A stretch of DNA of 24,000 nt from Methylohalobius crimeensis 10Ki. GTDB lineage: Bacteria > Pseudomonadota > Gammaproteobacteria > Methylococcales > Methylothermaceae. Positions 3,664-24,000 of this stretch are shown piece after piece; the stretch's first letter is position 1; each line of letters opens with the position of its first letter. The notes beneath the pieces were generated by a model, which ran no database searches, had not been told where the DNA came from, and saw only the letters and a program-made list of their open reading frames with translations. The position numbers and the translations under genes were made by a program. Where the stretch lies: contig NZ_ATXB01000002.1 of NCBI RefSeq assembly GCF_000421465.1, positions 276,690 through 300,689 of the forward strand, given 5' to 3'.

Positions 3664-4101
3664 ATGCGGTACGTCTATTCGCTCACTTTGGAACGCGACG
3701 AGGATGGGGGATACATCGCCAGAACGCGGGATGTACCCGAAGCCAACACCAATGGTGACTCCGAAAAAGAAGCATTGCAGGAGATGAGCGAAGCGTTGGG
3801 TGCGGCCCTCGCGGGATACGCATTGGAGGGGCGAGTCATACCACCGCCGTCCGATGCTTTACCGGGAGAATATCCGGTCCCGGTGGCTCCATTGGTTGCG
3901 GTCAAACTGGCACTTCGATCGGCTATGCACGACGAACATATCACCAACGTGGAATTGGCCCGGCGTTTAGGTGTGTCCGAGGGAGCGGTGCGACGTTTGC
4001 TGGACTTGGATCACGCATTCCGCCTGGACGTTGTGGTGACCGCCCTGGCCGCCATCGGCCGCGGGCTCATCATAGAGGATCAAGAACAGTTCGCCGCTTG
4101 A
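3664..4101 (+). CDS. HicB-family antitoxin with C-terminal HTH; no adjacent hicA
   Basis: The N-terminus MRYVYSLTLERDEDGGYIARTRDVPEANTNGDSEKEALQEMSEAL...GRVIPPPSD is HicB-like. The C-terminus ITNVELARRLGVSEGAVRRLLD is an HTH. There is no room for a hicA ORF between 3590 and 3663. Confidence 0.8.
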   Translation: MRYVYSLTLERDEDGGYIARTRDVPEANTNGDSEKEALQEMSEALGAALAGYALEGRVIPPPSDALPGEYPVPVAPLVAVKLALRSAMHDEHITNVELARRLGVSEGAVRRLLDLDHAFRLDVVVTALAAIGRGLIIEDQEQFAA

Positions 4102-4322: not shown

Positions 4323-5748
4323 CATATGCGCCAACTTAAGCGCACAAGTGGTTGAAATTTGGAGGAAGTGACGGCAAGTTACAGGCTTTTTTCAACCGCC
4401 AAGTCGAAGGAGCCTGCCATGTCGCCACTTCCGAACAGTGTTGATATCTCATTTGGGCGTTTTCTGCAAGAACTGCCTTCAGGCTATGAGGAGATGGCCT
4501 ATGAATTTCGCGCTTTTGCCCGGGGGCGCAAGATCCGCACCCCATCGGAATTGCTGCAGGTGGTGCTGCTCTATTGTGGTTTGGATTTGAGTCTGAGGGG
4601 GACGGCGGGACACCTGACGATGGGCCATGCCCGGATGACCGACACGGCGATCCATCGACGCTTGAAGGCCTGCGGTCCGTGGCTGAAGGCGATGGTTCAG
4701 CATTTGTATGGCGGGCGATCGGCGTCATTGGTTCCGGGCCACTTGCGCTTTGTGGCCATCGATGGGAGTACGGTCCAAGCCCCCGGAGCGGAAGGGATCA
4801 GTTACCGACTGCACCTAGCGATGGACCTGGTGGAGATGACCTTGGTGCATGCGGAGGTCAGCGATGCCCATTGCGGGGAAGGGCTTCCACATTTTCCCCT
4901 GCAGGCGGGCGATGTGGCGGTGCTGGATCGCGGCTACAATCAACCCGCCTCGCTGATTGCGGCGGCCGAGGCGGGGATCGGTTGGGTGGTGCGCCATAAT
5001 CCTCACGGCATGAACCTTTATGACGACCGGATGCGGAAAGTGGACCTCCATGGCTGGTTGAAACGTCGACAAACGCCCGCCCATCGCTTGGTCCGCGTGG
5101 CCGACCGAGCCCGAGGTCACTACACGGGGGCGGTGCTCCACGCCATTCCCTTGCCCCCCGCCGAAGCGGCCAAGGCCCGCCAGAAACTTCGTCGTCAGGC
5201 AAAAAAAAGGCTATACCCCGTCTCGGCGGGCGTTCCATCTGGCCGGCTGGGTTCTGATCGTCACCACCGTGCCAGTTGCCGTACTGGATACCGAAACCGT
5301 GGGCGAACTCTACCGGGTGCGCTGGCAAGTCGAACTGACTATCAAACGCCTCAAAAGCCTGCTCGATCTGGACAAGCTGCGCGCGCAGGCAGGGGGTGCC
5401 CTGGCGGAAGTCTACCTCTATGGCAAACTGCTCTATACCTGGGTGTTGGAAAAGATCGCCGCCCGACGATTTGGCCCGCACTGGACCCGGCTCGACCAAC
5501 CACGAGCGGGGACGTGGTGGCGACTGTGGGCGATGCTCAAGCAAGCCTTGGCGATCGCCATTCAAGCGGTGGATCGTTGGCGGACGGAAAACTTCGAGGC
5601 TTGCCGGCAAGTCATGAGGGAACGTTCCCGTCGGAGAAAACTGCAAACACTGCCCGATCCGGTGATCCAGCTATTGGAATGGTGTAGAGAAAAAGGTTTA
5701 AGCAATACCTGATCTATCAACAACTTGCAGCTTAAGTTGGCGCTTATG
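4323..5748 (+). mobile_element. IS4-family insertion sequence (1426 bp)
   Basis: The terminal inverted repeats are CATATGCGCCAACTTAAGC (left) and CATAAGCGCCAACTTAAGC (reverse complement of the right end), matching at 18 of 19 positions. An 11-bp direct repeat AGGCGAAGGGG flanks the element at 4312-4322 and 5749-5759. It carries a single DDE transposase gene. Confidence 0.9.
4419..5712 (+). pseudogene. IS4-family DDE transposase, reading frame broken at an A8 tract
   Basis: The N-terminal part (MSPLPNSVDISFGRFLQELP...QKLRRQAKK) is in one frame. The C-terminal part (...LAGWVLIVTTVPVAVLDTETVGELYRVRWQVELTIKRLKS..., a YREK-type motif) is in the +1 frame. The switch is at AAAAAAAA, 5201-5208, and A7 would restore a single ORF. 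GGAG lies upstream of the ATG at 4419. Confidence 0.8.
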
Positions 5749-5923
5749 AGGCGAAGGGGTCAGTGAGTTGCGCATTCATTACGGCCCCGGTTATCGAGTC
5801 TATTTCCAGCAACACGGTAATACCCTGATCCTCTTATTGTGTGGTGGAGATAAGCAGTCGCAAAGCCGGGATATCGCCGCCGCAAAGAAAATCGCCAAAG
5901 AATGGAGTGCTCGAAATGGCTGA
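5749..5923 (+). pseudogene. 3' fragment of the same killer gene
   Basis: From 5750 the sequence reads [57 protein letters not shown]. Removing the IS and one target-duplication copy joins this in frame to the 4181 fragment, giving a product of about 100 aa. Confidence 0.85.
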
Positions 5924-6236
5924 AAAATTTACTAAATTCGATCCGGCCGCCATGTTGGAAACCGACGAGGACATCGCCATTTTCATGGCCGATGCTTTGG
6001 AAACCGGAAATGCATCCTATATTGCAAAAGCGCTTGGTGTCGTGGCTCGTGCCAAAGGTATGACAGAAATAGCGAGAAAAACCGGCCTATCCCGGGAGCA
6101 GCTCTATCGTTCCTTCAGCGAGGAAGGCAATCCCACCTTGAAAACCACCATTGCCGTGATGCGGGCGCTTGGCGTGGATTTGTCGGCCAAAGTCCATGAA
6201 AGTGAAAAAGAAGCCGAAACCAACGATACGGTTTGA
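5916..6236 (+). CDS. Addiction-module antidote protein (HTH, TIGR02684-like), intact
   Basis: [87 protein letters not shown]. The ATG at 5916 overlaps the killer stop (ATGGCTGA). Confidence 0.85.
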
Positions 6237-7340: not shown

Positions 7341-8287
7341 CTCGACGACCCCAAATAGGCGACGGTCACGTCGGTTCGGCCGTGACCCAATTCGTGTGCT
7401 ATAACTTGTCGGGCCTGGCGGTCGGCATCCTTGCCGGCAGTCCTCCGGCCTGCCACCACCGGCGCCTCACGGCCTGTCATCTGTTTGTAGCGCTCGCAGG
7501 CGTAGCCCGCCCGGGCGTCGTGATAACCGCGCAGGCCGAATTCGTGTAGGCGGTCGCGGCCCTCGCGCAACTCCCCGTGGAGCCAAATGGCATAGTTCTC
7601 ACCGGGAGCGATGAGGTTGCGCCTTTCGGATCCCGGCGGGCGCACCTTCAGGGCGAACGCCAGGGCCTTGCGTCCTTCTTCGGTTACCGGCACCCAACGG
7701 GGGGCACCGCGGCCGCCCTTGGTCCCTTCCTGAACGTTGATTTTGCCGTATCGTTCGGCCTCCTTGGCCCACCGGGTGAGATCCGCCAAGGTGGCTTCCT
7801 TGCTCCGGACCCCAAACTCGCGGGCGAGCGCCAAGGCCGCCGCGGCACGATCCAGCCCCGCCTCGCGCAGCGAATCGCGGGCTTGTCCGTAGGTGTGGCG
7901 GTCCAGGGAGACCGGCGCTTCCTGGCGCACCTGGGAGCGCGCGGCGCCGGCAAGCGCCCTCGGACTGACGCACTCCCAACGGCCCTCGCGCGCATGCCGC
8001 ATGACGACGTTGACGGTACTGATCCGGTTCTGAACGGTCGGGGCGGCCAGATCCTGCGTCCGAAGATAAGCGGCGTAGCGCTCGACCAGATCCCGGTCCA
8101 CCTTGCGCATGTCGCGAATGCCCTGGGTCTTCAGCCAATTGTCGAACAGGCGCCAGCGCTCGGCGTGGGACTGGACGGACCCGAAATGGCCACCGCCGAA
8201 CCGGTCAATCAGAACCTGGCGGCCGGCCCAGGCCACCCGCTTTCCCCAACCGTGATTGCGCCTTTCGATCCCTCCAAATTTTCCCAT
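7337..8287 (-). CDS. Tyrosine-recombinase-fold protein (plasmid-type integrase domain protein)
   Basis: 316 aa. Candidate catalytic residues in the expected order are R in FGVRSKEA, H-x-x-R in GYHDARAGYA, and H...Y in HELGHGRTDVTVAYLG. Confidence 0.7.
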   Translation of the reverse strand: MGKFGGIERRNHGWGKRVAWAGRQVLIDRFGGGHFGSVQSHAERWRLFDNWLKTQGIRDMRKVDRDLVERYAAYLRTQDLAAPTVQNRISTVNVVMRHAREGRWECVSPRALAGAARSQVRQEAPVSLDRHTYGQARDSLREAGLDRAAAALALAREFGVRSKEATLADLTRWAKEAERYGKINVQEGTKGGRGAPRWVPVTEEGRKALAFALKVRPPGSERRNLIAPGENYAIWLHGELREGRDRLHEFGLRGYHDARAGYACERYKQMTGREAPVVAGRRTAGKDADRQARQVIAHELGHGRTDVTVAYLGSSR

Positions 8288-8289
8288 CT

Positions 8290-8559
8290 TTATCGATCGT
8301 TGCTGCGTAACAGGTAATAATCCTCCAGTTCCGGTTCCGGCAGCGCATCCGAAACCCGCTCGTCCTCGGCCTCGATCACCCTTTCGAGCATGGCCCGTTT
8401 CGTTACGCCGTAATGCTTGGCCAGGCGGTTCAATGCGTGCCAGGCCGATTCGCCGACGAACAGATTGATCCGGCGCTCACCGCCCCTGCCCGCGACCCGC
8501 TTATCCCGGTACCGCCGCTGCCGTTCAGCGTCGCTCAATGCCATGATCCTGTTCTCCAT
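8290..8559 (-). CDS. Small DNA-binding regulator, probably ribbon-helix-helix
   Basis: 89 aa. LSDAERQRRYRDKR... is followed by RINLFVGESAWHALNRLAKHYGVTKRAMLERVIE, a strand-helix-helix pattern. The gene ends 2 nt before the recombinase start. GTT-N7-AAC sites lie at both ends of the gene. Confidence 0.6.
   Translation of the reverse strand: MENRIMALSDAERQRRYRDKRVAGRGGERRINLFVGESAWHALNRLAKHYGVTKRAMLERVIEAEDERVSDALPEPELEDYYLLRSNDR
8299..8311. repeat. GTT-N7-AAC motif copy 1 (GTTGCTGCGTAAC)
   Basis: Lies in the last codons of the regulator gene, 12 nt before the recombinase ATG. Confidence 0.6.
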
Positions 8560-9839: not shown

Positions 9840-10040
9840 AAGACGTACTTTTATTGAATATTAGTTCAATACATATCGCCAGTAATATCAGAAAGGAACG
9901 AGTAATTCTATTTCTGAAAAATTAAAAAACATGTTAATTCAAGTAATATTCAATAATTGTGAGTTAAAATATCTTGTTGCAGTGATCATTAAGTTGATAT
10001 CCGGGAAATATGTTTTATAATTCAACTTATATGCAACTAA
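9840..10040. promoter_or_regulatory. AT-rich repeat region upstream of the parM-like gene; candidate parC-type centromere/promoter
   Basis: There is an abrupt switch to AT-rich sequence. The 12-bp inverted repeat TTATTGAATATT (9851-9862) pairs with AATATTCAATAA (9945-9956). AGTAAT occurs at 9881, 9901 and 9942, and WTTCAA motifs recur. Confidence 0.45.
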
Positions 10041-10059
10041 AGTGCAGACAGGAGTATTT

Positions 10060-11040
10060 ATGTTCGTTTTCGGTCTGGATATCGGTTATTCGAATCTGAA
10101 GCTGTGCTTCGGAGAGACAGGAGAAACCCCCAAAACCGCCATACATCCCGCAGGAGCGGCACCCGCCGAACGGCTCCCCGGCAATATCAGACCGGGTTCC
10201 GGAAACGAAGGGTTCAGGGTCCAGGTCAACGGCAAATCATGGGCAGCGGGCATACATCCCAGCCGTTTCGAGATATGGGAACGGTCGTTGCATCCGGACT
10301 ACAGCCATACCGATTCCTACAAGGCGCTGTTTTACACGGCCCTGATCATGGGGGAACGGGACGAAATCGATCTGCTCGTCACTGGATTGCCGGTCACTCA
10401 GTTCGACGAAAAACGCGAATCACTGACCGGGGAAATGCAAGGAGAACACACCGTTGCCGGAAAACGCACGGTCAAAATCAAACGCGTGGAGATCGTCCCC
10501 CAACCCGTCGGCGGTTTCATGGACGCCTTGGCAAACGCCGACGCGGACACCACCGAAATGCTGGCCGAAGGCCGTGTCCTGGTGGTCGATCCCGGTCACT
10601 TCTCATTCGATTGGGTGCTGATCAACGGATCGGCTCTCCAAAAACAATCCAGTGGTTCCAGCACCGAGGCTATGTCCGCGGTCTTGGAGACAGCCGCGGC
10701 CGAAATCAGCGACGACTATGGCGGGCGGATCGAGCCAGACCGAATTGAACAGGCGTTGCAGCAAGGAAAGAATCACGTACTCCTGTTCGGGAAAAAAGTG
10801 GACTTTGCCCCCTATCTGGACCAGGCATCCCGGGAGGTATCCCTGGTCGCCATCGAAAAACTCAGAACGGCCATGCGCAAGGAAGTCGAATCCATCGACG
10901 CGGTGATCGTCCCCGGCGGTGGCGCCAAATGGTGGGTGCCGATCACCAAGGAGCTTTTCCCCGAATCCCGTGTGATATCACCGGACGAACCGATATTGGC
11001 CAACGCCAGGGGATTCTTCGAATTGGGAGCCTCCGGCTGA
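10060..11040 (+). CDS. parM: ParM/StbA-family actin-like segregation ATPase
   Basis: 326 aa with actin-fold motifs in order: FGLDIGYSNLKL, LVTGLPV, VEIVPQPVGG, VLVVDPGHFSFDW, VIVPGGGAKWW, ILANARGFF. GGAG lies 5 nt before the ATG at 10060. Confidence 0.85.
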   Translation: MFVFGLDIGYSNLKLCFGETGETPKTAIHPAGAAPAERLPGNIRPGSGNEGFRVQVNGKSWAAGIHPSRFEIWERSLHPDYSHTDSYKALFYTALIMGERDEIDLLVTGLPVTQFDEKRESLTGEMQGEHTVAGKRTVKIKRVEIVPQPVGGFMDALANADADTTEMLAEGRVLVVDPGHFSFDWVLINGSALQKQSSGSSTEAMSAVLETAAAEISDDYGGRIEPDRIEQALQQGKNHVLLFGKKVDFAPYLDQASREVSLVAIEKLRTAMRKEVESIDAVIVPGGGAKWWVPITKELFPESRVISPDEPILANARGFFELGASG

Positions 11041-11611: not shown

Positions 11612-13522
11612 ATGACTGATAAGCAACCCATCAACCCTCTCGACATTCTTCTGCAACTCGACTGGGCAGAGGGCGACGACTTAGAGTTTAAATCCGCCAA
11701 AGGCGGACTGCCTAAAAGTCTGTGGGAGACATACAGTGCCATGGCTAATGCCCATGGCGGGGTAATTTTGCTTGGGGTGGAAGACGACGGCCGAGTCAGC
11801 GGCGTGCATGAGCCGCGCAAACTCAAAAAGTCTTTCTGGGATACGGTCAACAATCGAGGCAAGGTCAGCCTCAATCTGTGTACCGATACCGATCTCGCCG
11901 AGGTAACGCACCCGGGTGGCCTGATACTCGCCATTCGTATTCCACAGGCGACGCGTTACCAGCGCCCGATTTTCCTGGGTCAGAACCCACTAACCGGCAC
12001 CTATCGACGCAATTACGAGGGCGACTACCGCTGTACCCCACAGGAAGTCGGCCGGATGCTATCCGACCAAGCCGAGGAGCCGGCAGACAGCCGGATACTG
12101 GAAGGCTTCGAGATGGAGGATCTCGATCTGCCCAGCCTACACCAGTACCGCCAGCGTCTCGCTTCCCATAAACCAACCCACCCTTGGCTGAGCGAGGACG
12201 ATGTAAACTTGCTCGCAAAGCTCGGTGGTTGGCGGCGCGACCGCAAAACCGGCACAGAAGGGTTAACGGTGGCTGGCTTGCTGATGTTCGGCCGCGACGA
12301 GACCTTGCGTGAAGGCGTACCCGGTTACCATGTGGACTACCGTGAACGGCTGTCTGATGATCCCGCCGAGCGGTGGAGCGACCGACTCACTGTCGATGGC
12401 ACTTGGCAGCCCAATCTATTCCAGTTCTACCTGCGAGTAGCACAGCGCCTGGTCGCTGACCTGAAACTCCCTTTCCAGCTTGATGCCGACCTCTTCCGCA
12501 AGGGGGAAACTGAAGTCCACGAGGCAATCCGCGAGGCCTTGGTAAACGCCCTGATTCACGCCGATTACAAAGGCCAAGGTGGTATCGTAGTAGAAAAATT
12601 CCGTGACGCCTTCGAGTTTTCAAACCCTGGGACCCTGCTTATCTCGTTTGATCAGCTGCTGCAAGGCAATGTCAGCGAATGTCGCAACAAGGCACTGCAA
12701 ATCATGTTCATGCTAATAGGCGCAGCCGAAAAGGCTGGCTCCGGAGTGGACAAAATGCGTAAAGGTTGGGCCTCGCAGCATTGGCGATCGCCGATGGTCC
12801 GAGAGCAAGTACAGCCAGAGCGAGTGACTTGGCGATTGCCGATGGTCAGCCTGATCCCCGACGAATCTCTGACTCGGCTCGAAGGTGTTTTCGGCAGAAA
12901 ATTCAACCAGTTCAGTCCAAACGAAGTCCAGGCGCTGGTGACCGCCGATGTCGAAGGGACTGTCGACAACTCGCGGATGCGCCAGATCTGCACCATCCAC
13001 GCAGCGGACGTGACTCGTTTGCTCCAGGGATTGGTGGCCAAAGGCGCCCTGGTACAGGAGGGGCAAGGACGGTGGAGCCGCTACCGCCTGCCAGAACCCG
13101 TTCCCTCCGTACATAAGACTGGGAGCTCCGTACATAAGACTGGGAGCTCCGTACATAAGACTGGGAGCTCCGTACATAAGACTGGGAGCTCCGTACATAA
13201 GACTGCAGACTCCGTACATAGTGAAAAACTAAGACTGATCGCCCAGCCAGCAAGAGACCAGCAGCGTTTGCAACCTGATGCAATGGAAAGAATCATTCTC
13301 GAACTTTGCCGGGGACGATGGTTAACCCGAAATCAGCTTTCAGAGCTAGTGGATCGCCACGCCGATGGCCTACGTTCACGCTTTCTGACTCCCATGGTCG
13401 CACATGGACGCTTGCGGCTGCGATATCCTGATAAACCTAACCGTGCCGATCAGGCCTACACTTCCGATGAAGGGGTTAGAGAAAATGCCGTTTCATCAAC
13501 CAAACAAGCCGGTCACCATTGA
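11612..13522 (+). CDS. AlbA_2 (divergent AAA-4) / HATPase_c_4-type putative DNA-binding regulator (COG2865-like)
   Basis: 636 aa. The N-terminus reads EGDDLEFKSAKGGLPKSLWETYSAMANAHGGVILLGVEDDGRVSGV. The middle reads HEAIREALVNALIHADY...NPG...RNKALQIMFMLIGAAEKAGSGVDKM. The C-terminus is winged-helix-like. Confidence 0.8.
   Translation: MTDKQPINPLDILLQLDWAEGDDLEFKSAKGGLPKSLWETYSAMANAHGGVILLGVEDDGRVSGVHEPRKLKKSFWDTVNNRGKVSLNLCTDTDLAEVTHPGGLILAIRIPQATRYQRPIFLGQNPLTGTYRRNYEGDYRCTPQEVGRMLSDQAEEPADSRILEGFEMEDLDLPSLHQYRQRLASHKPTHPWLSEDDVNLLAKLGGWRRDRKTGTEGLTVAGLLMFGRDETLREGVPGYHVDYRERLSDDPAERWSDRLTVDGTWQPNLFQFYLRVAQRLVADLKLPFQLDADLFRKGETEVHEAIREALVNALIHADYKGQGGIVVEKFRDAFEFSNPGTLLISFDQLLQGNVSECRNKALQIMFMLIGAAEKAGSGVDKMRKGWASQHWRSPMVREQVQPERVTWRLPMVSLIPDESLTRLEGVFGRKFNQFSPNEVQALVTADVEGTVDNSRMRQICTIHAADVTRLLQGLVAKGALVQEGQGRWSRYRLPEPVPSVHKTGSSVHKTGSSVHKTGSSVHKTGSSVHKTADSVHSEKLRLIAQPARDQQRLQPDAMERIILELCRGRWLTRNQLSELVDRHADGLRSRFLTPMVAHGRLRLRYPDKPNRADQAYTSDEGVRENAVSSTKQAGHH
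13105..13220. repeat. 21-bp tandem repeat, about 5.5 copies, in frame within the AlbA_2 gene
   Basis: The unit is CTCCGTACATAAGACTGGGAG, with four identical copies, a fifth ending GCAGA, and a partial sixth. It encodes five tandem heptapeptide units read as SVHKTGS (the fifth SVHKTAD), followed by a partial SVH. Confidence 0.95.
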
Positions 13523-18917: not shown

Positions 18918-19070
18918 CTACCGCTCCAAACAGCAAGTCATCATATAATCATCGTAGTAGTAACCATTTCCCGCATCGCTGATTTCGGCCTTGGCGATGA
19001 TAAAGCCGGCTCGCAGATAGGCGCGGACGGCCTGGCGGTGAAGTGGTTCAATGGATGTGACCAACCCAGT
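18918..19070 (-). pseudogene. Possible C-terminal remnant of a GNAT acetyltransferase
   Basis: The minus-strand frame reads ...IEPLHRQAVRAYLRAGFIIAKAEISDAGNGYYYDDYMM...*, resembling the N-x-x-A-x-x-x-Y-x-x-x-GF end of GNAT proteins. No N-terminal part is present, and the fragment abuts the stop of the TraI_2-like gene. Confidence 0.35.
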
Positions 19071-20155
19071 TAAAGGATAATACGATGAAGGAGAACTTCA
19101 GGATCGATCAATACACCGGCAGACCGTCCTTTCCGACCGCTATCCGCAATTTCAATCCGGTACATGTTGAGACCGTCCGACGTCCGCTGGTGGAGACCAA
19201 GCTTGAGGAAACCTTTTTGCACCTTTTCCCAATCAGGCGCTTCCATCCCGTACGACGCCGCGCACTCTGAAAACTTCCTGAAAATCCCCGGGCTGACCAG
19301 AAGCATCCCTTCGGGAACCATGCGGACGAGCGCATCCGGGGCGTTGCCCTCGAATTCGCCGGATTGAACGCCTTCCGACAACCAAGCCAAAAATCGCCTG
19401 CCCAACTCCTTGTTTGTAATCTTTCCAGATGCAGACACCGCAGATGCCGCCTTTTCAATGGAGCCAGGCGATCGTGAATCGTTCCGATCGTCATTCCCGC
19501 CGGATACCGTGGCGATTCGACCGACATCTTGCCCGGGTTCCGTTTTGGCCGTGACTGTATCGCTAACCGGTTCCGGCGCTGACAGCGGCGGCAGATTCAA
19601 CCGGTGGCAGGCCCTGTCGAGAATTTCCCCCAATACGCCGGCCTCGGATAAATCGCCGCGAACGACGGCGCACCATTGGGCATACGCTTCGCGATCCGAA
19701 GACAGCCAATCGGCGCCCTCCTCACCTAGAATGCGGAAGGCATACTCGTCGGCCGGGGCGGGTTCTCCCGCTTCAATCCAAGCGATTCCGTGTATCACAG
19801 AAGCGCCGAACACCGCATAGGTCCATAGATCACGCCGATGGCCGGCGGTTTCGGGCGGTGCGCCGGGCGGAAGCACGTATCCCAAACGCAGTTTCAGGGC
19901 CGTGGCGGCAACCGTGAGCGTCCGCTCGAGAATATGGCCCGGTTGAATCCTTCGAGCGGCAGAGGAACCTGCCCGACCGTACTCCGCGATCCGCCGCAGC
20001 GGCGGGAGATAATAGCGGTCGAAGTGCTCGGGAGTGGTCCCGACCAACGCCTCGATGCGGTCGATCTGCCGCTGATGGACATGAAGCGGTTCGGCGGACG
20101 AATCGTTGTTGGCACCGACGGGATACTTCACCCTCAATAAACGCAAGCGCTTCAA
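19070..20155 (-). CDS. TraI_2-like protein (MobH-relaxase-related N-domain plus TraI_2_C domain), short, with degenerate HD motifs
   Basis: EHFDRYYLPPLRRIAEYG...ILERTLTVAATALKLRLGYVLPPGAPPE...DLWTYAVFGASVIHGIAW is collinear with the PFGI-1-class relaxase N-domain. The C-terminus FLAWLSEGVQSGEF...MLLVSPGIFRKF...VQKGFLKLGLHQRTSDGLNMYRIEI matches the TraI C-terminal domain. The start is uncertain: TTG at 20155 overlaps the upstream stop, and GTG at 20131 is the alternative. The part of the 468-aa ORF upstream of 20155 is judged spurious. Confidence 0.7.
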   Translation of the reverse strand: MKRLRLLRVKYPVGANNDSSAEPLHVHQRQIDRIEALVGTTPEHFDRYYLPPLRRIAEYGRAGSSAARRIQPGHILERTLTVAATALKLRLGYVLPPGAPPETAGHRRDLWTYAVFGASVIHGIAWIEAGEPAPADEYAFRILGEEGADWLSSDREAYAQWCAVVRGDLSEAGVLGEILDRACHRLNLPPLSAPEPVSDTVTAKTEPGQDVGRIATVSGGNDDRNDSRSPGSIEKAASAVSASGKITNKELGRRFLAWLSEGVQSGEFEGNAPDALVRMVPEGMLLVSPGIFRKFSECAASYGMEAPDWEKVQKGFLKLGLHQRTSDGLNMYRIEIADSGRKGRSAGVLIDPEVLLHRIIL

Positions 20156-20535
20156 TCCAGCACCGTATGGCCACGGTTTTGCATGCAGCGCCGGTACACT
20201 CTTTTGTAGCGTTCCTCGGCACTCAGGCCCTTTCCGATACCACCGCCCATTCCGGCAAGGCCCGCACCCCAGGCCGCTCCCGTTCCCGGTGCGCCCGCCA
20301 GGGCTCCGACCACGGCGCCCGTGGCCGCTCCGAGAGCGCCTCCGACCAAGGCACCCTTGGCGGTTTCCTGGGCCGTCCCGCCAGAAGCTTGGCTTGCCAA
20401 TTGCCGGCATTCGGCCTGATCCTGGTGGATATAGGCGGCTCGCGGATCTCCGTAGGGATCGACGGTAGGCTGCCAATTGCCGTAGCTGGCGCAGCCAGCA
20501 ATGATCAACAGGACTAAAAGCATCAACAAGCGCAT
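20152..20535 (-). CDS. Glycine-zipper lipoprotein
   Basis: MRLLMLLVLLIIAGC is a signal peptide with a lipobox Cys. It is followed by GALVGGALGAATGAVVGALAGAPGTGAAWGAGLAGMGGGIG (glycine zipper). 127 aa from the ATG at 20535. Confidence 0.75.
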   Translation of the reverse strand: MRLLMLLVLLIIAGCASYGNWQPTVDPYGDPRAAYIHQDQAECRQLASQASGGTAQETAKGALVGGALGAATGAVVGALAGAPGTGAAWGAGLAGMGGGIGKGLSAEERYKRVYRRCMQNRGHTVLD

Positions 20536-20582: not shown

Positions 20583-21269
20583 TCATGACCCGCCGCTTAA
20601 TCGTTCGATCCATTCGCGGATCTTCATCGGCGACACGATGTTGATGAAACGCACGTCCACGCCGTCCGTGCCCGCCGCGGAAAATTCGAGCGTGCCGATA
20701 TTGAAAAGACGGGCGATCAGCCCCTGTTTCAAGCCGATGGAACGGATGTCCTCGAACCGAACCCGGTGCGTTTCCCGGGCGATGATTCCGATGCTTTGCT
20801 CGACGCCTTCCGGTGTGACAGCATATCGGTGAGCAACCCAGGGAAGGTACAACGCCAGCGCGGACAAGGCCGCCACGCCCCAGCCGGCAAGACGGAGGAA
20901 ACCGATCACCAGCGCCGGATCGAGCCAGGCGGGCAGGCCGGGCAGGTGCATCGCCTCCAGAACGGTTCGGACCGCCAGGACCGGCGCCAACCCAAGCAAG
21001 GCGCCGAGCAGCAGGAACGGTAGATAAAACGGCAGCGATACCCGCAAAGCTTGACGTATCATCACCGGATCGAACGATGTGGTTTCCGGGGCGTTCGTCC
21101 CTTCGGGCACGGCCTTACCGGACCCGGCCACGGCGAAACCGCCCTCGACCTTTTGTATGCGCCAAGACTCGCCGGTCCGCTCGGCGAGGACGTCGCGCAG
21201 CCAGGCCGCCCGTTCGAATCGCTCGAACGGTCGTTGCCCGTGATCCAGAATCACATCAATCTCAGACAT
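20583..21269 (-). CDS. Membrane protein with a C-terminal bacterial PH (bPH_2/YdbS-like) domain
   Basis: Two long hydrophobic helices are followed by YAVTPEGVEQSIGIIARETHRVRFEDIRSIGLKQGLIARLFNIGTLEFSAAG...VRFINIVSPMKIREWIE. The ATG at 21269 overlaps the upstream stop (ATGTCTGA). Confidence 0.75.
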   Translation of the reverse strand: MSEIDVILDHGQRPFERFERAAWLRDVLAERTGESWRIQKVEGGFAVAGSGKAVPEGTNAPETTSFDPVMIRQALRVSLPFYLPFLLLGALLGLAPVLAVRTVLEAMHLPGLPAWLDPALVIGFLRLAGWGVAALSALALYLPWVAHRYAVTPEGVEQSIGIIARETHRVRFEDIRSIGLKQGLIARLFNIGTLEFSAAGTDGVDVRFINIVSPMKIREWIERLSGGS

Positions 21270-21822
21270 TTTGAAACGCCTCCCAATCGGGGCCGATCGC
21301 ATTCACGATCCGCCCGACGGACAAACCGGTTACACGGTGCACCGACAAAATCCGCAGGGCGGGGTGCGGTTCGCCGCTGCGCCGCCAGGCATGCCATACC
21401 TGGCGTTCCTCGGCTTCCGACAACGCCGACTCCGGGCGGCCTTTTCTCCCCGGACAGCCGAAATACCGCCGGATGGCCGCGCAGTCGCTGCGCTGCAAAC
21501 CGTAGAGATCGACCATCAATTGCGTCGGAGCGCCTGCCTGAAACAGTTCCAGGACCGCCTCGCGGTCGCGGCAATCCAGGTCGGCGAGCGCCAGGGCCGC
21601 GTCGAGGCTTTCGGATGTGACCTCGATCTTGATCTCTAGCACCTGGGCCAGCGCGAACAGGACCTTTTGGAATTGGTCGGGGCGCAATCGCCGGATCCGC
21701 CGAATCTGGCGGCGATCCAGACCGAGCCCTTGCAGTGCCTCGGGACGTCCGATATCGCTCAAGCGCGACATCGACAGCAGCAAGTTCAGGTTGAGGTCCT
21801 TCCGGATTTGCGCTTCGTTCAT
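21262..21822 (-). CDS. DUF2857-like protein (ICE/pathogenicity-island replication-region protein)
   Basis: 186 aa. ...LELFQAGAPTQLMVDLYGLQRSDCAAIRRYFGCPGRKGRPESALSEAEERQVWHAWRR fits the remembered DUF2857 core pattern. ATGA overlap with the upstream gene. Confidence 0.6.
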   Translation of the reverse strand: MNEAQIRKDLNLNLLLSMSRLSDIGRPEALQGLGLDRRQIRRIRRLRPDQFQKVLFALAQVLEIKIEVTSESLDAALALADLDCRDREAVLELFQAGAPTQLMVDLYGLQRSDCAAIRRYFGCPGRKGRPESALSEAEERQVWHAWRRSGEPHPALRILSVHRVTGLSVGRIVNAIGPDWEAFQNV

Positions 21823-22295
21823 TCAACAAAATCCTCCCGGATCAAACAATCGACGAGCCCGTCCACCAATTCACCTAGAGCGCCCGTCTGGTTTTCGAAC
21901 CAGGCGCACAAGCGCTGCACCTCCTCGTCCTTCGGATAGCGCAAACGGATCGCTTGAATCAATCGTTCGGTTCCGGCGTCGCAACCGACCGGCAGGTTGC
22001 CGGTCGAAAGCTGATCAAGTATATCGAGCAGAATGTCTTCCACGTCCTGATCGACCATGGCATGACTCATCGGCCACCTCCAGCATCCACGAGTGAAATT
22101 CCCGTATCGAGCGGCTTGCCCCCCCACGGCCAGGCTGGTGCCCGACACATCCACCGGCAACCGCCATCCGCAAGCGATCCTGTCCGCGCAGACACGGGCT
22201 TGATCGGGATCGTCGAACCACGCGAGGATCTGGCCGGTGGCTTCGTAAGCCTTGCCGTCGAAGGACCATATCAAGTCAACGATTCGAGCATTCAT
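21819..22295 (-). CDS. Hypothetical protein
   Basis: 158 aa from the ATG at 22295, which overlaps the upstream stop (TGATG). No family was recognised. Confidence 0.6.
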   Translation of the reverse strand: MNARIVDLIWSFDGKAYEATGQILAWFDDPDQARVCADRIACGWRLPVDVSGTSLAVGGQAARYGNFTRGCWRWPMSHAMVDQDVEDILLDILDQLSTGNLPVGCDAGTERLIQAIRLRYPKDEEVQRLCAWFENQTGALGELVDGLVDCLIREDFVE

Positions 22296-22335
22296 CAAAT
22301 TGCCTCCAATTGCCGTTTTTCGAGCCTCGGGCCGT
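22291..22335. repeat. Copy A of a 45-bp gene-junction repeat
   Basis: TTCATCAAATTGCCTCCAATTGCCGTTTTTCGAGCCTCGGGCCGT matches 23936-23980 at 40 of 45 positions. Confidence 0.85.
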
Positions 22336-22915
22336 CGATCGTTTCGACGGTTCCTTCGATAACTTGCCGGGCCTTTCGTTTGTCGCCGTGCAACCTGATC
22401 GAAGGTTCGCTAGCAAATCCACCGATTCGGTTCGCGGATTCGGCAATGCCCGCCAAATGGGGCGGATATTTCGGTCTCGCGCTTCGCATGGCGTAACCGC
22501 GATAACGGGTCTGGAATTCATTGGCGACGAAGGGCCACTCGTGTTCGGTCTTTCTGCCCAAGGCGATCCAGCCCCCCATATCCTCGATTACGCGATGAAT
22601 CAGGATGTCGTCGAACGCCACGCTTTGGTGAGGCCCCACGCAGCGCACGGCCTTGTCCACCTTGCTCCAGGCCAACAAGGCGCTGTCCGCGGTCGACCCG
22701 CCCAGCATCCTGAACGCATCGGCGGGTTTGGGCAGATACTGGCCGGTGTCCGGGTTCACCACATGGCGGCTCAACGCTTCACGGACGGCGCTCAAGTCGA
22801 ACGGGCGCATGGCCTGCCACCACACGCTCAGGGCGAACTCGGAAATCGCCTTGCCGTAGAAATCGTAGACCCCGGTCATCAAAACGCGGAAATCTTGAAA
22901 ATCCTCGGCGGTCAT
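22295..22915 (-). CDS. Hypothetical replication-accessory protein (possible helicase-loader-type; weak call)
   Basis: 206 aa, starting 4 nt after the initiator-like gene with AAGAGGTGA upstream. The N-terminus FRVLMTGVYDFYGKAISEFALSVWWQAMRPFDLSAVREALSRHV resembles phage replication accessory proteins. Confidence 0.55.
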   Translation of the reverse strand: MTAEDFQDFRVLMTGVYDFYGKAISEFALSVWWQAMRPFDLSAVREALSRHVVNPDTGQYLPKPADAFRMLGGSTADSALLAWSKVDKAVRCVGPHQSVAFDDILIHRVIEDMGGWIALGRKTEHEWPFVANEFQTRYRGYAMRSARPKYPPHLAGIAESANRIGGFASEPSIRLHGDKRKARQVIEGTVETIDGPRLEKRQLEAI

Positions 22916-22919
22916 GACG

Positions 22920-23942
22920 TCACCTCTTGTCGGAATCGTCCAATTCGGGCGGCACCCAGTTGAGGGCGATCCTCATGTTCCTGGACAGGGGGGCATCCGG
23001 GGCCCGGTAATTGTCCGATCGCAATTCGGGCGGGATCCAGGCTTCGGCAACCGCCGCGTTATGGGCCTCGAGTTCGGATGGGTTTCGGGAGCCGCTCCCT
23101 CCACTATCCCCCGGCGATGGGGTTTCCCACGCCTGCGCATAGGGCTCGTCGGGACCGAAAAACGTCGAAGCCCGCATGACGTAGCGCGTGCTAACGATCC
23201 CCGTGGTTTGGCAATACCGGGCGTAGCGTATGACACCGTCAAGCAGCGCCTCCGCTGCCACGCCGGCCTTGCGTCTGGCGGCCCATGCCCGGTAGGCGGC
23301 CTTCTTCGGATTGTTTCCCGATCGGCGGGGATAACACCGCCACGCTTCTTCGAACATGGTCGGGTAGGAAGTTTCCGGTAGGGATTTCTTCGGGTGACCG
23401 GAAGGGGGGCTGGCACGTGGGGGGCGATCGCCGTCAGGTGATGGCCCCTTAACATCTTTTCCCCCTGTTGTAGTCTCTGTTGTAGTCTCTGTAATAGTTT
23501 GCTGTCTCACAGCAAACTTGTTTGTGGTATCACGGCAAACTTGTTTGTTGAATTCACCAGACTTGTTTGTTGAATCCAGCAAACTGGAATCTTGCTCTTC
23601 GCATTCTTGTTTGCTGGATTCAACAAACTGGCATATGGCTTGGTTCAGAGCGGTTTCGTCCAATTGAAAGTACAATCTCGCGGGGACGCCTTTTCTCTCG
23701 ACGTGCAATATGCCCCGCTTGGTCAAAGCTTTCCGGGCCGCCTCCTGTTCGTAACGGGTCAGGCCGGTTTCCTCGGTCCAATCATGCATGCTCTTGTAGA
23801 ACCGCCGTCCCTCTACCCGCCGGTGCCAATAGACCATTTGGGAGAGAAAAACCGCGCCCGCGACGGATCCGGCAATGTCGACGAAGACGCGGTGATAGGC
23901 AATCGGCCTATCCAGGGCATCGATGTAGTTGATGCTATTCAT
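22920..23942 (-). CDS. Replication-initiator/organizer-like protein (winged-helix N-domain, low-complexity linker, phage-type C-domain)
   Basis: The N-terminus is IAYHRVFVDIAGSVAGAVFLSQMVYWH...DWTEETGLTRYEQEAARKALTKRGILHVERKGVPARLYFQLD. The C-terminus is FEEAWRCYPRRSGNNPKKAAYRAWAARRKAG...TFFGPDEPYAQAW. The linker is encoded by the iteron region. Confidence 0.65.
   Translation of the reverse strand: MNSINYIDALDRPIAYHRVFVDIAGSVAGAVFLSQMVYWHRRVEGRRFYKSMHDWTEETGLTRYEQEAARKALTKRGILHVERKGVPARLYFQLDETALNQAICQFVESSKQECEEQDSSLLDSTNKSGEFNKQVCRDTTNKFAVRQQTITETTTETTTGGKDVKGPSPDGDRPPRASPPSGHPKKSLPETSYPTMFEEAWRCYPRRSGNNPKKAAYRAWAARRKAGVAAEALLDGVIRYARYCQTTGIVSTRYVMRASTFFGPDEPYAQAWETPSPGDSGGSGSRNPSELEAHNAAVAEAWIPPELRSDNYRAPDAPLSRNMRIALNWVPPELDDSDKR
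23466..23501. repeat. 12-bp tandem repeat (2 perfect copies and 1 degenerate copy) inside the initiator gene
   Basis: TGTTGTAGTCTC occurs twice, followed by TGTAATAGTTTG. It encodes TITETTTETTT on the minus strand. Confidence 0.9.
23513..23631. repeat. Phased iteron-like repeats plus a 20-bp perfect inverted repeat inside the initiator gene; candidate origin
   Basis: ACTTGTTTGT cores lie at 23516, 23539 and 23561, with TCTTGTTTGC at 23606, giving a period of about 22.5 bp. GTTTGTTGAATCCAGCAAAC (23565-23584) is the exact reverse complement of 23609-23628. GC content is locally lower. Confidence 0.7.
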
Positions 23943-23980
23943 TAAACTGCCTCAAATTGCCGTTTTCCGAGCATCGGGCC
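23936..23980. repeat. Copy B of the 45-bp gene-junction repeat
   Basis: TTCATTAAACTGCCTCAAATTGCCGTTTTCCGAGCATCGGGCCGT. On the minus strand it encodes a 10-codon ORF, MLGKRQFEAV*, whose TAA overlaps the initiator ATG (TAATG). Confidence 0.85.
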
Positions 23981-24000
23981 GTTTCTTCACGACTGGAGTT

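Follow-up and report, generated by a model that had tools for sequence, protein, structure and literature searches.

The segment 23465-23631 of a 24,000-nucleotide stretch of the Methylohalobius crimeensis 10Ki genome (contig NZ_ATXB01000002.1; the whole stretch is hereafter referred to as the window, and positions are those of the window unless another contig is named) is likely to be the vegetative replication origin of an integrative and conjugative element (ICE), lying within that part of the element's initiator gene that codes for the linker. This gene encodes a 340-residue protein that belongs with the replication initiation O-like proteins of phages, and the segment within it consists of phased, dyad-symmetric iterons followed by short tandem repeats. 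An origin embedded in the initiator gene is a textbook arrangement and the conceptual gain is therefore modest. The analysis supports as new the occurrence of such an in-gene iteron origin in an initiator family without a Pfam match and on a conjugative element.

Iterons and tandem repeats in the linker-coding DNA

Five dyad-symmetric iterons of 20-21 bp with the form GTTTG-N10-11-CAAAC, placed 22-23 bp apart, and one degenerate slot were identified in the linker DNA (Table 1). Four of the five iterons match this form exactly, for which 0.07 matches are expected and which none of 100 shuffled sequences attained, and the arms of the individual iterons match each other at 7/9 to 9/9 positions. 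The centre-to-centre spacings are 23, 22.5, 22 and 44 bp; the 44-bp gap holds a degenerate unit (coding strand AAGAATGCGAAGAGCAAGATTCCA, compared with AAGTTTGC...CAAAC in the iteron form), so that six phased slots can be recognised. The slots of a related locus, L002, that correspond to the degenerate slot of the window are weak iterons. Both Tandem Repeats Finder (TRF) and a second repeat finder report a 22-23-bp array at 23497-23585. The word ACTTGTTTGT, which is the junction between consecutive iterons, is present there in three exact copies at 23516, 23539 and 23561 (spacing 23 and 22 bp), and at least four matches to it with no more than one mismatch were obtained in none of 100 shuffles. 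An inverted repeat (23565-23584 and 23609-23628), exact over 20 bp and extending to 26 nt at 92%, is formed by iterons A and B in opposite orientation. The iterons occupy nucleotides 315-446 of the gene and, together with the 12-bp repeats, nucleotides 315-478, and their GC content is 0.415 as compared to 0.58 for the window. The nearest DnaA-box-like sites are more than 4.5 kb away from the repeats, and their frequency is not above chance.

The iterons are adjoined by the 12-bp tandem repeat CTGTTGTAGTCT, identified by the repeat finder and TRF at 23465-23492 (2.3 copies, 100% match), with a degenerate third copy extending to about 23500. The 11-mer ACAGAGACTAC, which occurs family-wide, is present on the coding strand at 23482-23492 and 23470-23480. 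The GC content is 0.361 across these repeats and within the gene, the duplex is least stable in a stretch that starts at 23468 (z about 2.2); intergenic AT-rich spots of the window are less stable than this segment. The 12-bp repeats are proposed to be an element for unwinding or for entry of the helicase loader.

The sequence following the iterons was also compared with that of two phages. The junction reads ACTATTACAGAGAC...GGGGGAAAAGAT in the window (23455-23500, minus strand) and ACTATTACAAAAGAAAAAAGAAAAGAT in phage lambda (39120-39160; L110 1120-1160), the two having ACTATTACA and GAAAAGAT in common, and phage P22 has ACAAAAGACAATAT twice at this place. The likeness between the three junctions could be due to a common element or to chance.

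A sequence-only reading of the stretch had described five features of this DNA, all of which were recovered in the positions it had given or only a few bases away, and all are above chance. The linker of the 340-residue protein is encoded by repetitive DNA, as judged from the agreement of the modelled domains with the repeat positions. The 12-bp tandem repeat given as 23466-23501 corresponds to CTGTTGTAGTCT and its degenerate copy, the repeats described as phased at about 22.5 bp are the ACTTGTTTGT words at the junctions of five larger iterons, and the local reduction in GC content is seen in the iterons as well as in the 12-bp repeats. The perfect 20-bp inverted repeat is likewise exact, but is a pair of iterons and not a separate element.

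Selection on the repeat DNA

Homologous loci, 109 from genomes and viral contigs and 80 from metagenomes as an independent set, were reduced to 61 and 49 non-redundant loci, respectively (110 in all), with offsets counted from codon 1 of the initiator gene. Repeats are present in the linkers of the homologues as well, in the same position and again with a 23-bp period, as the sequence-only reading had anticipated for an origin. In the 61 loci, short-range direct repeats account for a fraction of 0.44 of the bases at +300 to +399 and of 0.32 at +400 to +499, as against about 0.04 elsewhere, and the independent 49 loci gave values of 0.30 and 0.33 at +300 and +400. TRF assigned a best period of 23 bp (or 45-47 or 69) to 41 of 44 and 22 of 27 arrays. 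The iteron subtypes CAAAC, CAATC and CCAAC follow the clades.

The motif ACAGAGACTAC, allowing up to one mismatch, is found on the coding strand after the iterons, between +350 and +620, in 84 of the 110 loci (51/61 and 33/49), while approximately 1.39 Mb of flanking sequences contain three matches. It is present in one to three copies per locus, mostly 12 bp apart and in some loci 10-11 bp apart, that is, out of frame. The 12-bp repeat is thus a family-wide conserved DNA motif and not merely AT-rich filler, and the layout of iterons and motif is conserved across the family. The hosts of the almost invariant ACAGAGACTAC range from Vibrio and Enterobacteria to Burkholderiales, and it is present in the Shiga toxin (Stx) 1a-converting phages (L195 3425-3475). 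A literature search for the 11-mer returned unrelated primer matches only, and no description of it was found.

Selection acts on the repeat DNA itself. The five iterons of the window start at gene nucleotides 315, 359, 381, 403 and 426, corresponding to frames 0, 2, 0, 1 and 0, so that the same DNA word, falling in each of the three frames, yields SKQ, TNK, NKQ, TNK and QQT. Where ACAGAGACTAC encodes TETT, the codons are ACA GAG ACT in 31 of 31 cases, from hosts of 40-64% GC, although ACA and ACT constitute only 16% and 19% of the Thr codons in the same genes; the invariance of these synonymous positions indicates a constraint on the nucleotide sequence. At the protein level, the ratios of nonsynonymous to synonymous substitution rates (dN/dS) relative to L001, the contig of the closest relative, are 0.05-0.28 across the module (0.05 for the N-terminal domain, 0.28 for the C-terminal part and 0.22 for the DUF6475 gene that follows the initiator gene).

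The initiator protein

In searches against PHROGs, the initiator protein matched phrog_9773, annotated as 'replication initiation O-like', with an E-value of 2.5e-35 over residues 8-177. Its C-terminal part (residues 116-287) matched phrog_3729 (E 2.6e-28), phrog_1701 (E 4e-26) and phrog_26426 (E 6.8e-25), the families concerned being those of replication initiation, DnaD-like loader and primosomal proteins, and also replisome organizers. The protein has no Pfam match at E-values up to 0.1, no NCBIfam match and no profile match to the lambda O family (PF04492, Phage_rep_O). BLASTP comparisons with lambda O (E 0.47) and with P22 gp18 (E 0.18, winged-helix region only) were not significant, and a sequence search of the PDB with the family profile gave no match. 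The gene is preceded by a GAGG ribosome-binding site 7 nt 5' of the ATG.

A total of 511 homologues of the initiator protein were identified. No record identical to it was found, and a search of genome, viral and metagenome contigs for close relatives with the window protein's own peptides gave none. In alignment-based scans, relatives of the N-terminal domain reached about 60-70% at best, with the exception of an orphan copy on L001 described below.

An AlphaFold2 model, built on an alignment of 18 sequences, consists of a winged helix (residues 17-118) with a predicted local distance difference test score (pLDDT) of about 90, a disordered interdomain linker (residues 118-190) with pLDDT below 50 and a helical C-terminal domain (residues 190-277) with pLDDT 81-93. 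Foldseek comparison of the model with the PDB returned winged-helix proteins only, among them plasmid RepA_N (4pql, 4pt7, 5kbj) and DnaD-N (2v79), with weak E-values of 0.03-0.2. On the basis of the model, the N-terminal winged-helix domain is presumed to be the reader of the iterons, and the helical C-terminal domain is presumed to contact the loader or the helicase. The repeat DNA encodes residues from about 105 to 160, covering the end of the last helix of the N-terminal domain and part of the disordered linker. The length and sequence of the linker differ freely between homologues, and it is a stretch of protein able to tolerate an embedded origin.

The N-terminal domain and the iterons as an exchangeable module

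The N-terminal domain and the iterons are inherited together as one module. This is evident from the closest relative of the initiator, P0001, encoded on contig L001 of a Methylothermaceae metagenome-assembled genome. Between the 12-bp repeats and the stop codon, as well as in the DUF6475 and DUF2857 genes downstream, L001 is 92-95% identical to the window at the DNA level, and the C-terminal domain is shared at 88-93% although the N-terminal domain differs, with only about 30% amino acid identity. The linker repeats of L001 are also different (GGATCCTGTAGCACTGGTG, 23-24 bp apart; its iterons are also given as GGATCCTGTAGCAC). Just upstream of the full O-like gene of L001, at 7964-8320, lies an orphan open reading frame (ORF) for a winged-helix protein of 118 residues, whose DNA copies that of the N-terminal domain of the window (23609-23942) at 92% identity and carries an identical iteron A. 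The homology between the window and L001 stops directly after iteron A and restarts exactly at the 12-bp repeats, indicating that a foreign block of N-terminal domain plus iterons has replaced iterons B to E. The orphan ORF, with a dN/dS of 0.05 against the window, may therefore still act as a stand-alone binder of iterons.

Two other loci, L002 and L003, have N-terminal domains about 70% identical to that of the window and the same TTTGC...CAAACAAG iterons, and the C-terminal part of L002 is unrelated to that of the window. The repeats thus follow the N-terminal domain and not the C-terminal domain in the L001 and L002 mosaics, in agreement with the co-variation that the sequence-only reading had put forward, and across 43 loci the similarity of the iteron consensus rises with the identity of the N-terminal domain (Mantel test, Spearman r 0.43, p 5e-4). 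The exchange of the specificity module between the window and L001 constitutes a natural experiment for the recognition of an origin by its initiator.

The number of iterons also varies. A Klebsiella prophage (L004 6316-6486) has an exact 69-bp duplication, equal to three 23-bp iterons, and the block makes its initiator (P0075) 23 residues longer than the sibling proteins. This variation in copy number parallels the presence of four iterons in lambda and six in the Stx phages (PMC7466680).

The DUF6475 partner gene and gene neighbourhoods in relatives

The gene that directly follows the initiator gene encodes a DUF6475 protein, for which a structural model with pLDDT 84.8 was obtained. Foldseek searches with this model gave no meaningful match in the PDB; among the viral models, the matches were to a 'Replisome organizer' (E 1.8e-5), to 'Replicative helicase inhibitor G39P N-terminal' (E 6e-4, 1.1e-3 and 6e-3) and to 'Replication protein P' (E 8.4e-3). 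The DUF6475 protein is, as far as these model comparisons go, a candidate helicase loader, and may correspond in position to lambda P or to G39P of SPP1.

Elsewhere, DUF6475 genes are found directly behind other initiator-like genes: in a prophage of Burkholderia, in a phage-like circle from Marinobacter and heading an F-type ICE. The order O-like gene, DUF6475 and DUF2857 is also seen in L001 and L003. The Stx1a-converting phages have DnaC-like and DnaB-like genes beside the O-like gene, which contains the same 23-bp iterons and four TACAGAGAWTAC repeats, and a primase-helicase gene is found beside the O-like gene in prophages of Klebsiella and Enterobacter as well as in SaltyDalty, an isolated phage. 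Most homologues of the initiator are located in lambdoid prophages, beside cI/cro-type genes, rather than in ICEs.

A motif in the C-terminal tail of the initiator, LEAHNAAVAEAWI (22954-23072, residues 291-330), is common to an otherwise unrelated protein of 340 residues (E 0.004). This protein, encoded at L198 7992-9014 at the head of an F-type ICE, also precedes a DUF6475 gene, and the motif is a candidate for contact with DUF6475.

The host conjugative element

Judged from the genes within the window, the host is a conjugative element of the ICEclc/PFGI-1 class. The TraD coupling protein matched TIGR03754 with 945 bits (cut-off 648) and an ICE membrane protein matched TIGR03747 with 258 bits (cut-off 138.5). 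The relaxase (TraI_2/MobH) has TraI_2 and TraI_2_C domains above the Pfam cut-offs, and its match to the PFGI-1 relaxase model of NCBIfam is below cut-off. A DUF2857 protein was also identified (E 6e-21), DUF2857 being a domain of BisC, a regulator of bistability in ICEclc (PMC7423338). The sequence-only reading had taken the origin to be ICE- or plasmid-borne, and these genes bear out its conjugative side, with the qualification that the relatives of the initiator are mostly in prophages. The initiator, DUF6475, DUF2857 and relaxase genes form a tightly packed operon on the minus strand, with intact and translationally coupled frames. In L001, the same module lies about 3-4 kb from an integrase gene, behind an S24 repressor gene and a Cro-like gene.

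The window also holds genes for a ParM/PRTRC_D-like actin, an integrase-like protein, an insertion sequence (IS) and toxin-antitoxin proteins. An IS-type DDE transposase gene and HicB-like and HI1420-type antitoxin genes were observed at 4359-5687, 3664-4101 and 5841-6236, and their position amid conjugation genes shows the element to contain cargo and mosaic insertions. The least stable and most AT-rich stretch of the window, at 9840-10040, has TTCAATA-type repeats and lies just upstream of the ParM/PRTRC_D-like actin gene (10042-11040); it could be a partition site or a promoter. A 21-bp tandem repeat, CTCCGTACATAAGACTGGGAG (13105-13220; 5.5 copies, 96% match), is in frame and encodes five repeats of SVHKTGS within a Schlafen AlbA_2/HATPase_c_4 protein (11612-13522).

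Table 1. Positions of the initiator gene, its domains and repeats and the associated genes in the window
Feature	Position	Strand	Remarks
Initiator gene	22920..23942	-	340-aa ORF; phage 'replication initiation O-like'; first gene of tightly packed operon
N-terminal winged-helix domain (aa 1-118)	23589..23942	-	Modelled helices 18-24, 27-42, 52-59, 63-75 and 96-118; beta hairpin 79-94
Disordered interdomain linker (aa 118-190)	23373..23591	-	pLDDT <50
Helical C-terminal domain (aa 190-277)	23112..23375	-	pLDDT 81-93; PHROG matches
Iteron A	23609..23628	.	First of the iterons in gene order; GTTTGTTGAATCCAGCAAAC on coding strand; iteron B in exact reverse complement
Degenerate iteron slot between A and B	23586..23608	.	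Keeps the 22-23-bp phasing; 44-bp gap = 2 x 22
Iteron B	23565..23584	.	20 bp
Iteron C	23543..23562	.	One-base variant, arm ends CAGAC
Iteron D	23520..23540	.	21 bp
Iteron E	23497..23517	.	21 bp; perfect 9-bp arms; adjoins 12-bp repeats
12-bp repeats	23465..23500	-	Two exact and one degenerate copy; gene nt 447-478
DUF6475 gene (206 aa)	22295..22915	-	4 nt downstream of initiator gene; PF20081, E 9e-33
DUF2857 (BisC-like) gene	21262-21822	-	Operon headed by initiator gene
Short TraI_2/MobH relaxase gene	19070-20476	-	Same operon; overlaps glycine-zipper ORF

Proposed mechanism and alternative explanations

The following sequence of events is envisaged for the initiation of replication. The operon would be transcribed from a promoter beyond the end of the window and the O-like protein produced. 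Dimers of its N-terminal winged-helix domain would bind the five dyad-symmetric iterons, which, being about two helical turns apart, lie roughly on one face of the DNA, and a wrapped nucleoprotein complex comparable to the lambda O-some may be formed. The resulting strain would open the adjacent least stable segment that carries the ACAGAGACTAC repeats, and the helical C-terminal domain, together with the DUF6475 protein as a G39P/P-like loader, would recruit the host replicative helicase to the segment once it is open. The excised circular element would then replicate in the theta mode. We infer the binding of the protein to the iterons, the opening at the 12-bp repeats, the recruitment of the helicase and the firing of the origin in this element from the arrangement of these parts.

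Several points weigh against the assignment of 23465-23631 as an origin. With 36% GC, the low-stability segment is no more than moderately AT-rich, and it belongs to the least stable 2-3% of the 24 kb without being the minimum. The structural matches of DUF6475 have low template modelling scores (TM 0.33-0.43) and carry names from automatic annotation, and part of the Mantel correlation could come from physical linkage and common ancestry. The initiator has no sequence homology with lambda O or with P22 gp18, so that the analogy with these phages is one of architecture alone. The promoter and the regulators of the operon lie outside the window, and no experiment on any member of the initiator family was found in the literature searched. 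Furthermore, known ICEs, ICEclc included, replicate from the origin of transfer (oriT) by means of the relaxase (PMC5812530), and a second mode of replication is therefore not required.

This last point leads to a serious rival, which is nevertheless considered unlikely, namely that the iterons bind the O-like protein but serve in regulation (autoregulation, a roadblock to transcription before the BisC-like and relaxase genes, or exclusion of related phages and elements or incompatibility with them), with replication proceeding from oriT via the relaxase. Such a role would suit an initiator that heads an operon with a BisC-like regulator and a MobH-type relaxase, as well as the relaxase- and oriT-driven replication described for ICEs (PMC5812530). 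When cloned by themselves, the iterons of lambda are able to silence the replication of incoming lambda (PMC3349717), and the orphan N-terminal domain ORF of L001, with its one iteron, is under purifying selection, as would fit a protein that only binds. It accounts less readily for the full layout, in which iterons, a motif at the stability minimum of the gene, a loader-like gene and the C-terminal domain are all intact under purifying selection, and for L001, which gained a new N-terminal domain with new iterons yet kept its C-terminal part and candidate loader gene, as is expected if initiation has been maintained. That the module is instead a drifting, unused remnant of a lambdoid prophage which the ICE had captured is quite improbable. 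The lambdoid prophages that hold most homologues and the mosaic nature of the window, with its IS and cargo genes, are compatible with such a capture; the intact, translationally coupled frames, the low dN/dS values against L001, the recurrence of the gene order in L001 and L003 and the good preservation of the iterons are not what is expected of a relic. A partition-site reading of the repeats was also considered and was rejected.

Explanations in which the repeats have no function as DNA are regarded as very improbable. The repeats might be a by-product of a low-complexity, slippage-prone linker, since the linker is disordered and variable in length, the 12-bp repeat lies in frame, coding for TETT, and the copy number varies between siblings, as in the Klebsiella 69-bp block. 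A period of 22-23 bp is, however, not a multiple of three and is conserved as 23 bp in about 110 loci from hosts of 39-67% GC; the units are dyad-symmetric, and the iterons read in three frames, the ACAGAGACTAC copies 10-11 bp apart in some loci and the invariant synonymous positions of TETT add to this, so that a pure peptide-repeat explanation is strongly disfavoured by the frame and synonymous-site data. Equally hard to credit is an action of the inverted repeats in RNA, by which a hairpin in the initiator mRNA would control its translation or stability. Folding of the sense RNA of 23455-23650 does give -65 kcal/mol (z = -6.55 against shuffles), but a strong hairpin follows from palindromic iterons of which one copy is inverted, and in most homologues the repeats are direct and keep a fixed period of 23 bp. 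Rfam gave only sub-threshold matches to generic miRNA hairpins. No sigma-70-like promoter was found in 22800-24000 and terminator-like matches are at the level of shuffles (3 as against 1.8 expected); the idea of an internal promoter or terminator was therefore dropped.

The replication origin thus remains the preferred interpretation of the segment. It indicates the probable site and manner of replication of the excised circle and suggests a mode unlike the relaxase/oriT one, which would affect the copy number, stability and transfer frequency of the element. The winged-helix N-terminal domain, the iterons with a 23-bp period and the ACAGAGACTAC repeats provide a simple, testable three-part signature by which origins may be located in hundreds of prophages and elements that have the Pfam-less initiator, the Stx1-converting phages included. 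A more far-reaching proposal, which is possible but towards which some doubt is in order, is that an ICEclc/PFGI-1-class element carries a complete phage-type theta replicon, made up of an O-like initiator, its in-gene origin and a G39P/P-like loader, at the head of its BisC-like/relaxase operon, vegetative replication of the excised element thereby being wired to the decision to transfer, and that ACAGAGACTAC is an undescribed, host-independent signal for opening or loader entry across a large O-like family including the Stx1 prophages.

Comparison with known origins

The origin of phage lambda consists of four 18-bp iterons (39034-39118) and a 38-bp AT-rich tract at nucleotides 349-475 of the 900 of gene O, which is followed by gene P (PMC3349717). 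The window is similar in the location of the repeats at the junction of the N- and C-terminal domains of the initiator gene (nucleotides 315-478 of 1023), in the less stable A-rich tract directly downstream of the iterons in the direction of transcription and in the putative second replication gene that directly follows. The iterons of both are dyad-symmetric, those of lambda being four in number with a spacing of 20-24 bp and those of the window five, of 20-21 bp, with a spacing of 22-23 bp. The number of iterons varies, and alters the length of the protein, among lambda and the Stx phages 933W and P27 (six iterons; PMC7466680) as well as in the family described here. The window differs from lambda in that its post-iteron tract is of 36% GC with a conserved 12-bp repeat, and thus weaker than the 38-bp run of high AT content, in that the partner gene is DUF6475 and not P, and in that the host is a conjugative element. 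The lambda O/ori-type arrangement suggested by the sequence-only reading accordingly holds for position and layout, but does not extend to the protein, which is not a sequence homologue of lambda O.

In P22, the origin is annotated at coordinates 353-497 of gene 18, where repeats of the ATCGGTAAAAC type recur about every 23 bp and the two A-rich ACAAAAGACAATAT copies come after them in tandem, and a DnaB-like helicase gene is directly downstream of gene 18. The layout of the window agrees with that of P22, as with that of lambda, in position, in the size, symmetry and spacing of the iterons and in the order of the parts; the iteron and post-iteron sequences of the window are different. The oriL of phage SPP1 has direct repeats together with an AT-rich unwinding element within gene 38, which encodes the origin-binding 'replisome organizer', and the small helicase loader G39P is encoded next to it (PMC6316719). 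The likeness to the window lies in this placement of the origin, in the G39P-N-terminal-like and replisome-organizer-like structural neighbours of DUF6475 and in the DnaD-like and replisome-organizer PHROGs matched by the C-terminal part of the initiator. It is a likeness of fold and position only, the host phylum being different and no helicase gene, such as that for G40P in SPP1, being seen in the module of the window.

The iteron plasmids with Rep_3 initiators (pPS10, R6K, F and RK2) share with the window a winged-helix initiator and phased direct repeats beside an unwinding element. Their iterons are, in contrast, outside the rep gene and usually accompanied by DnaA boxes, and their initiators have two winged-helix domains and no DnaD-like C-terminal domain. 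A plasmid replicon of the Rep_3 type was rejected for the window on account of the absence of a Rep_3 match, the intragenic iterons and the absence of a DnaA box near the repeats.

Described ICEs such as ICEBs1, Tn916 and ICEclc replicate by the rolling-circle mode from oriT by the action of the relaxase (PMC5812530), and the phage-type module of the window is therefore a notable variation. Its set of initiator, iterons and candidate loader is of the phage type and predicts initiation of the theta type, in contrast to the relaxase/oriT system; both would give autonomous replication of an excised conjugative element.

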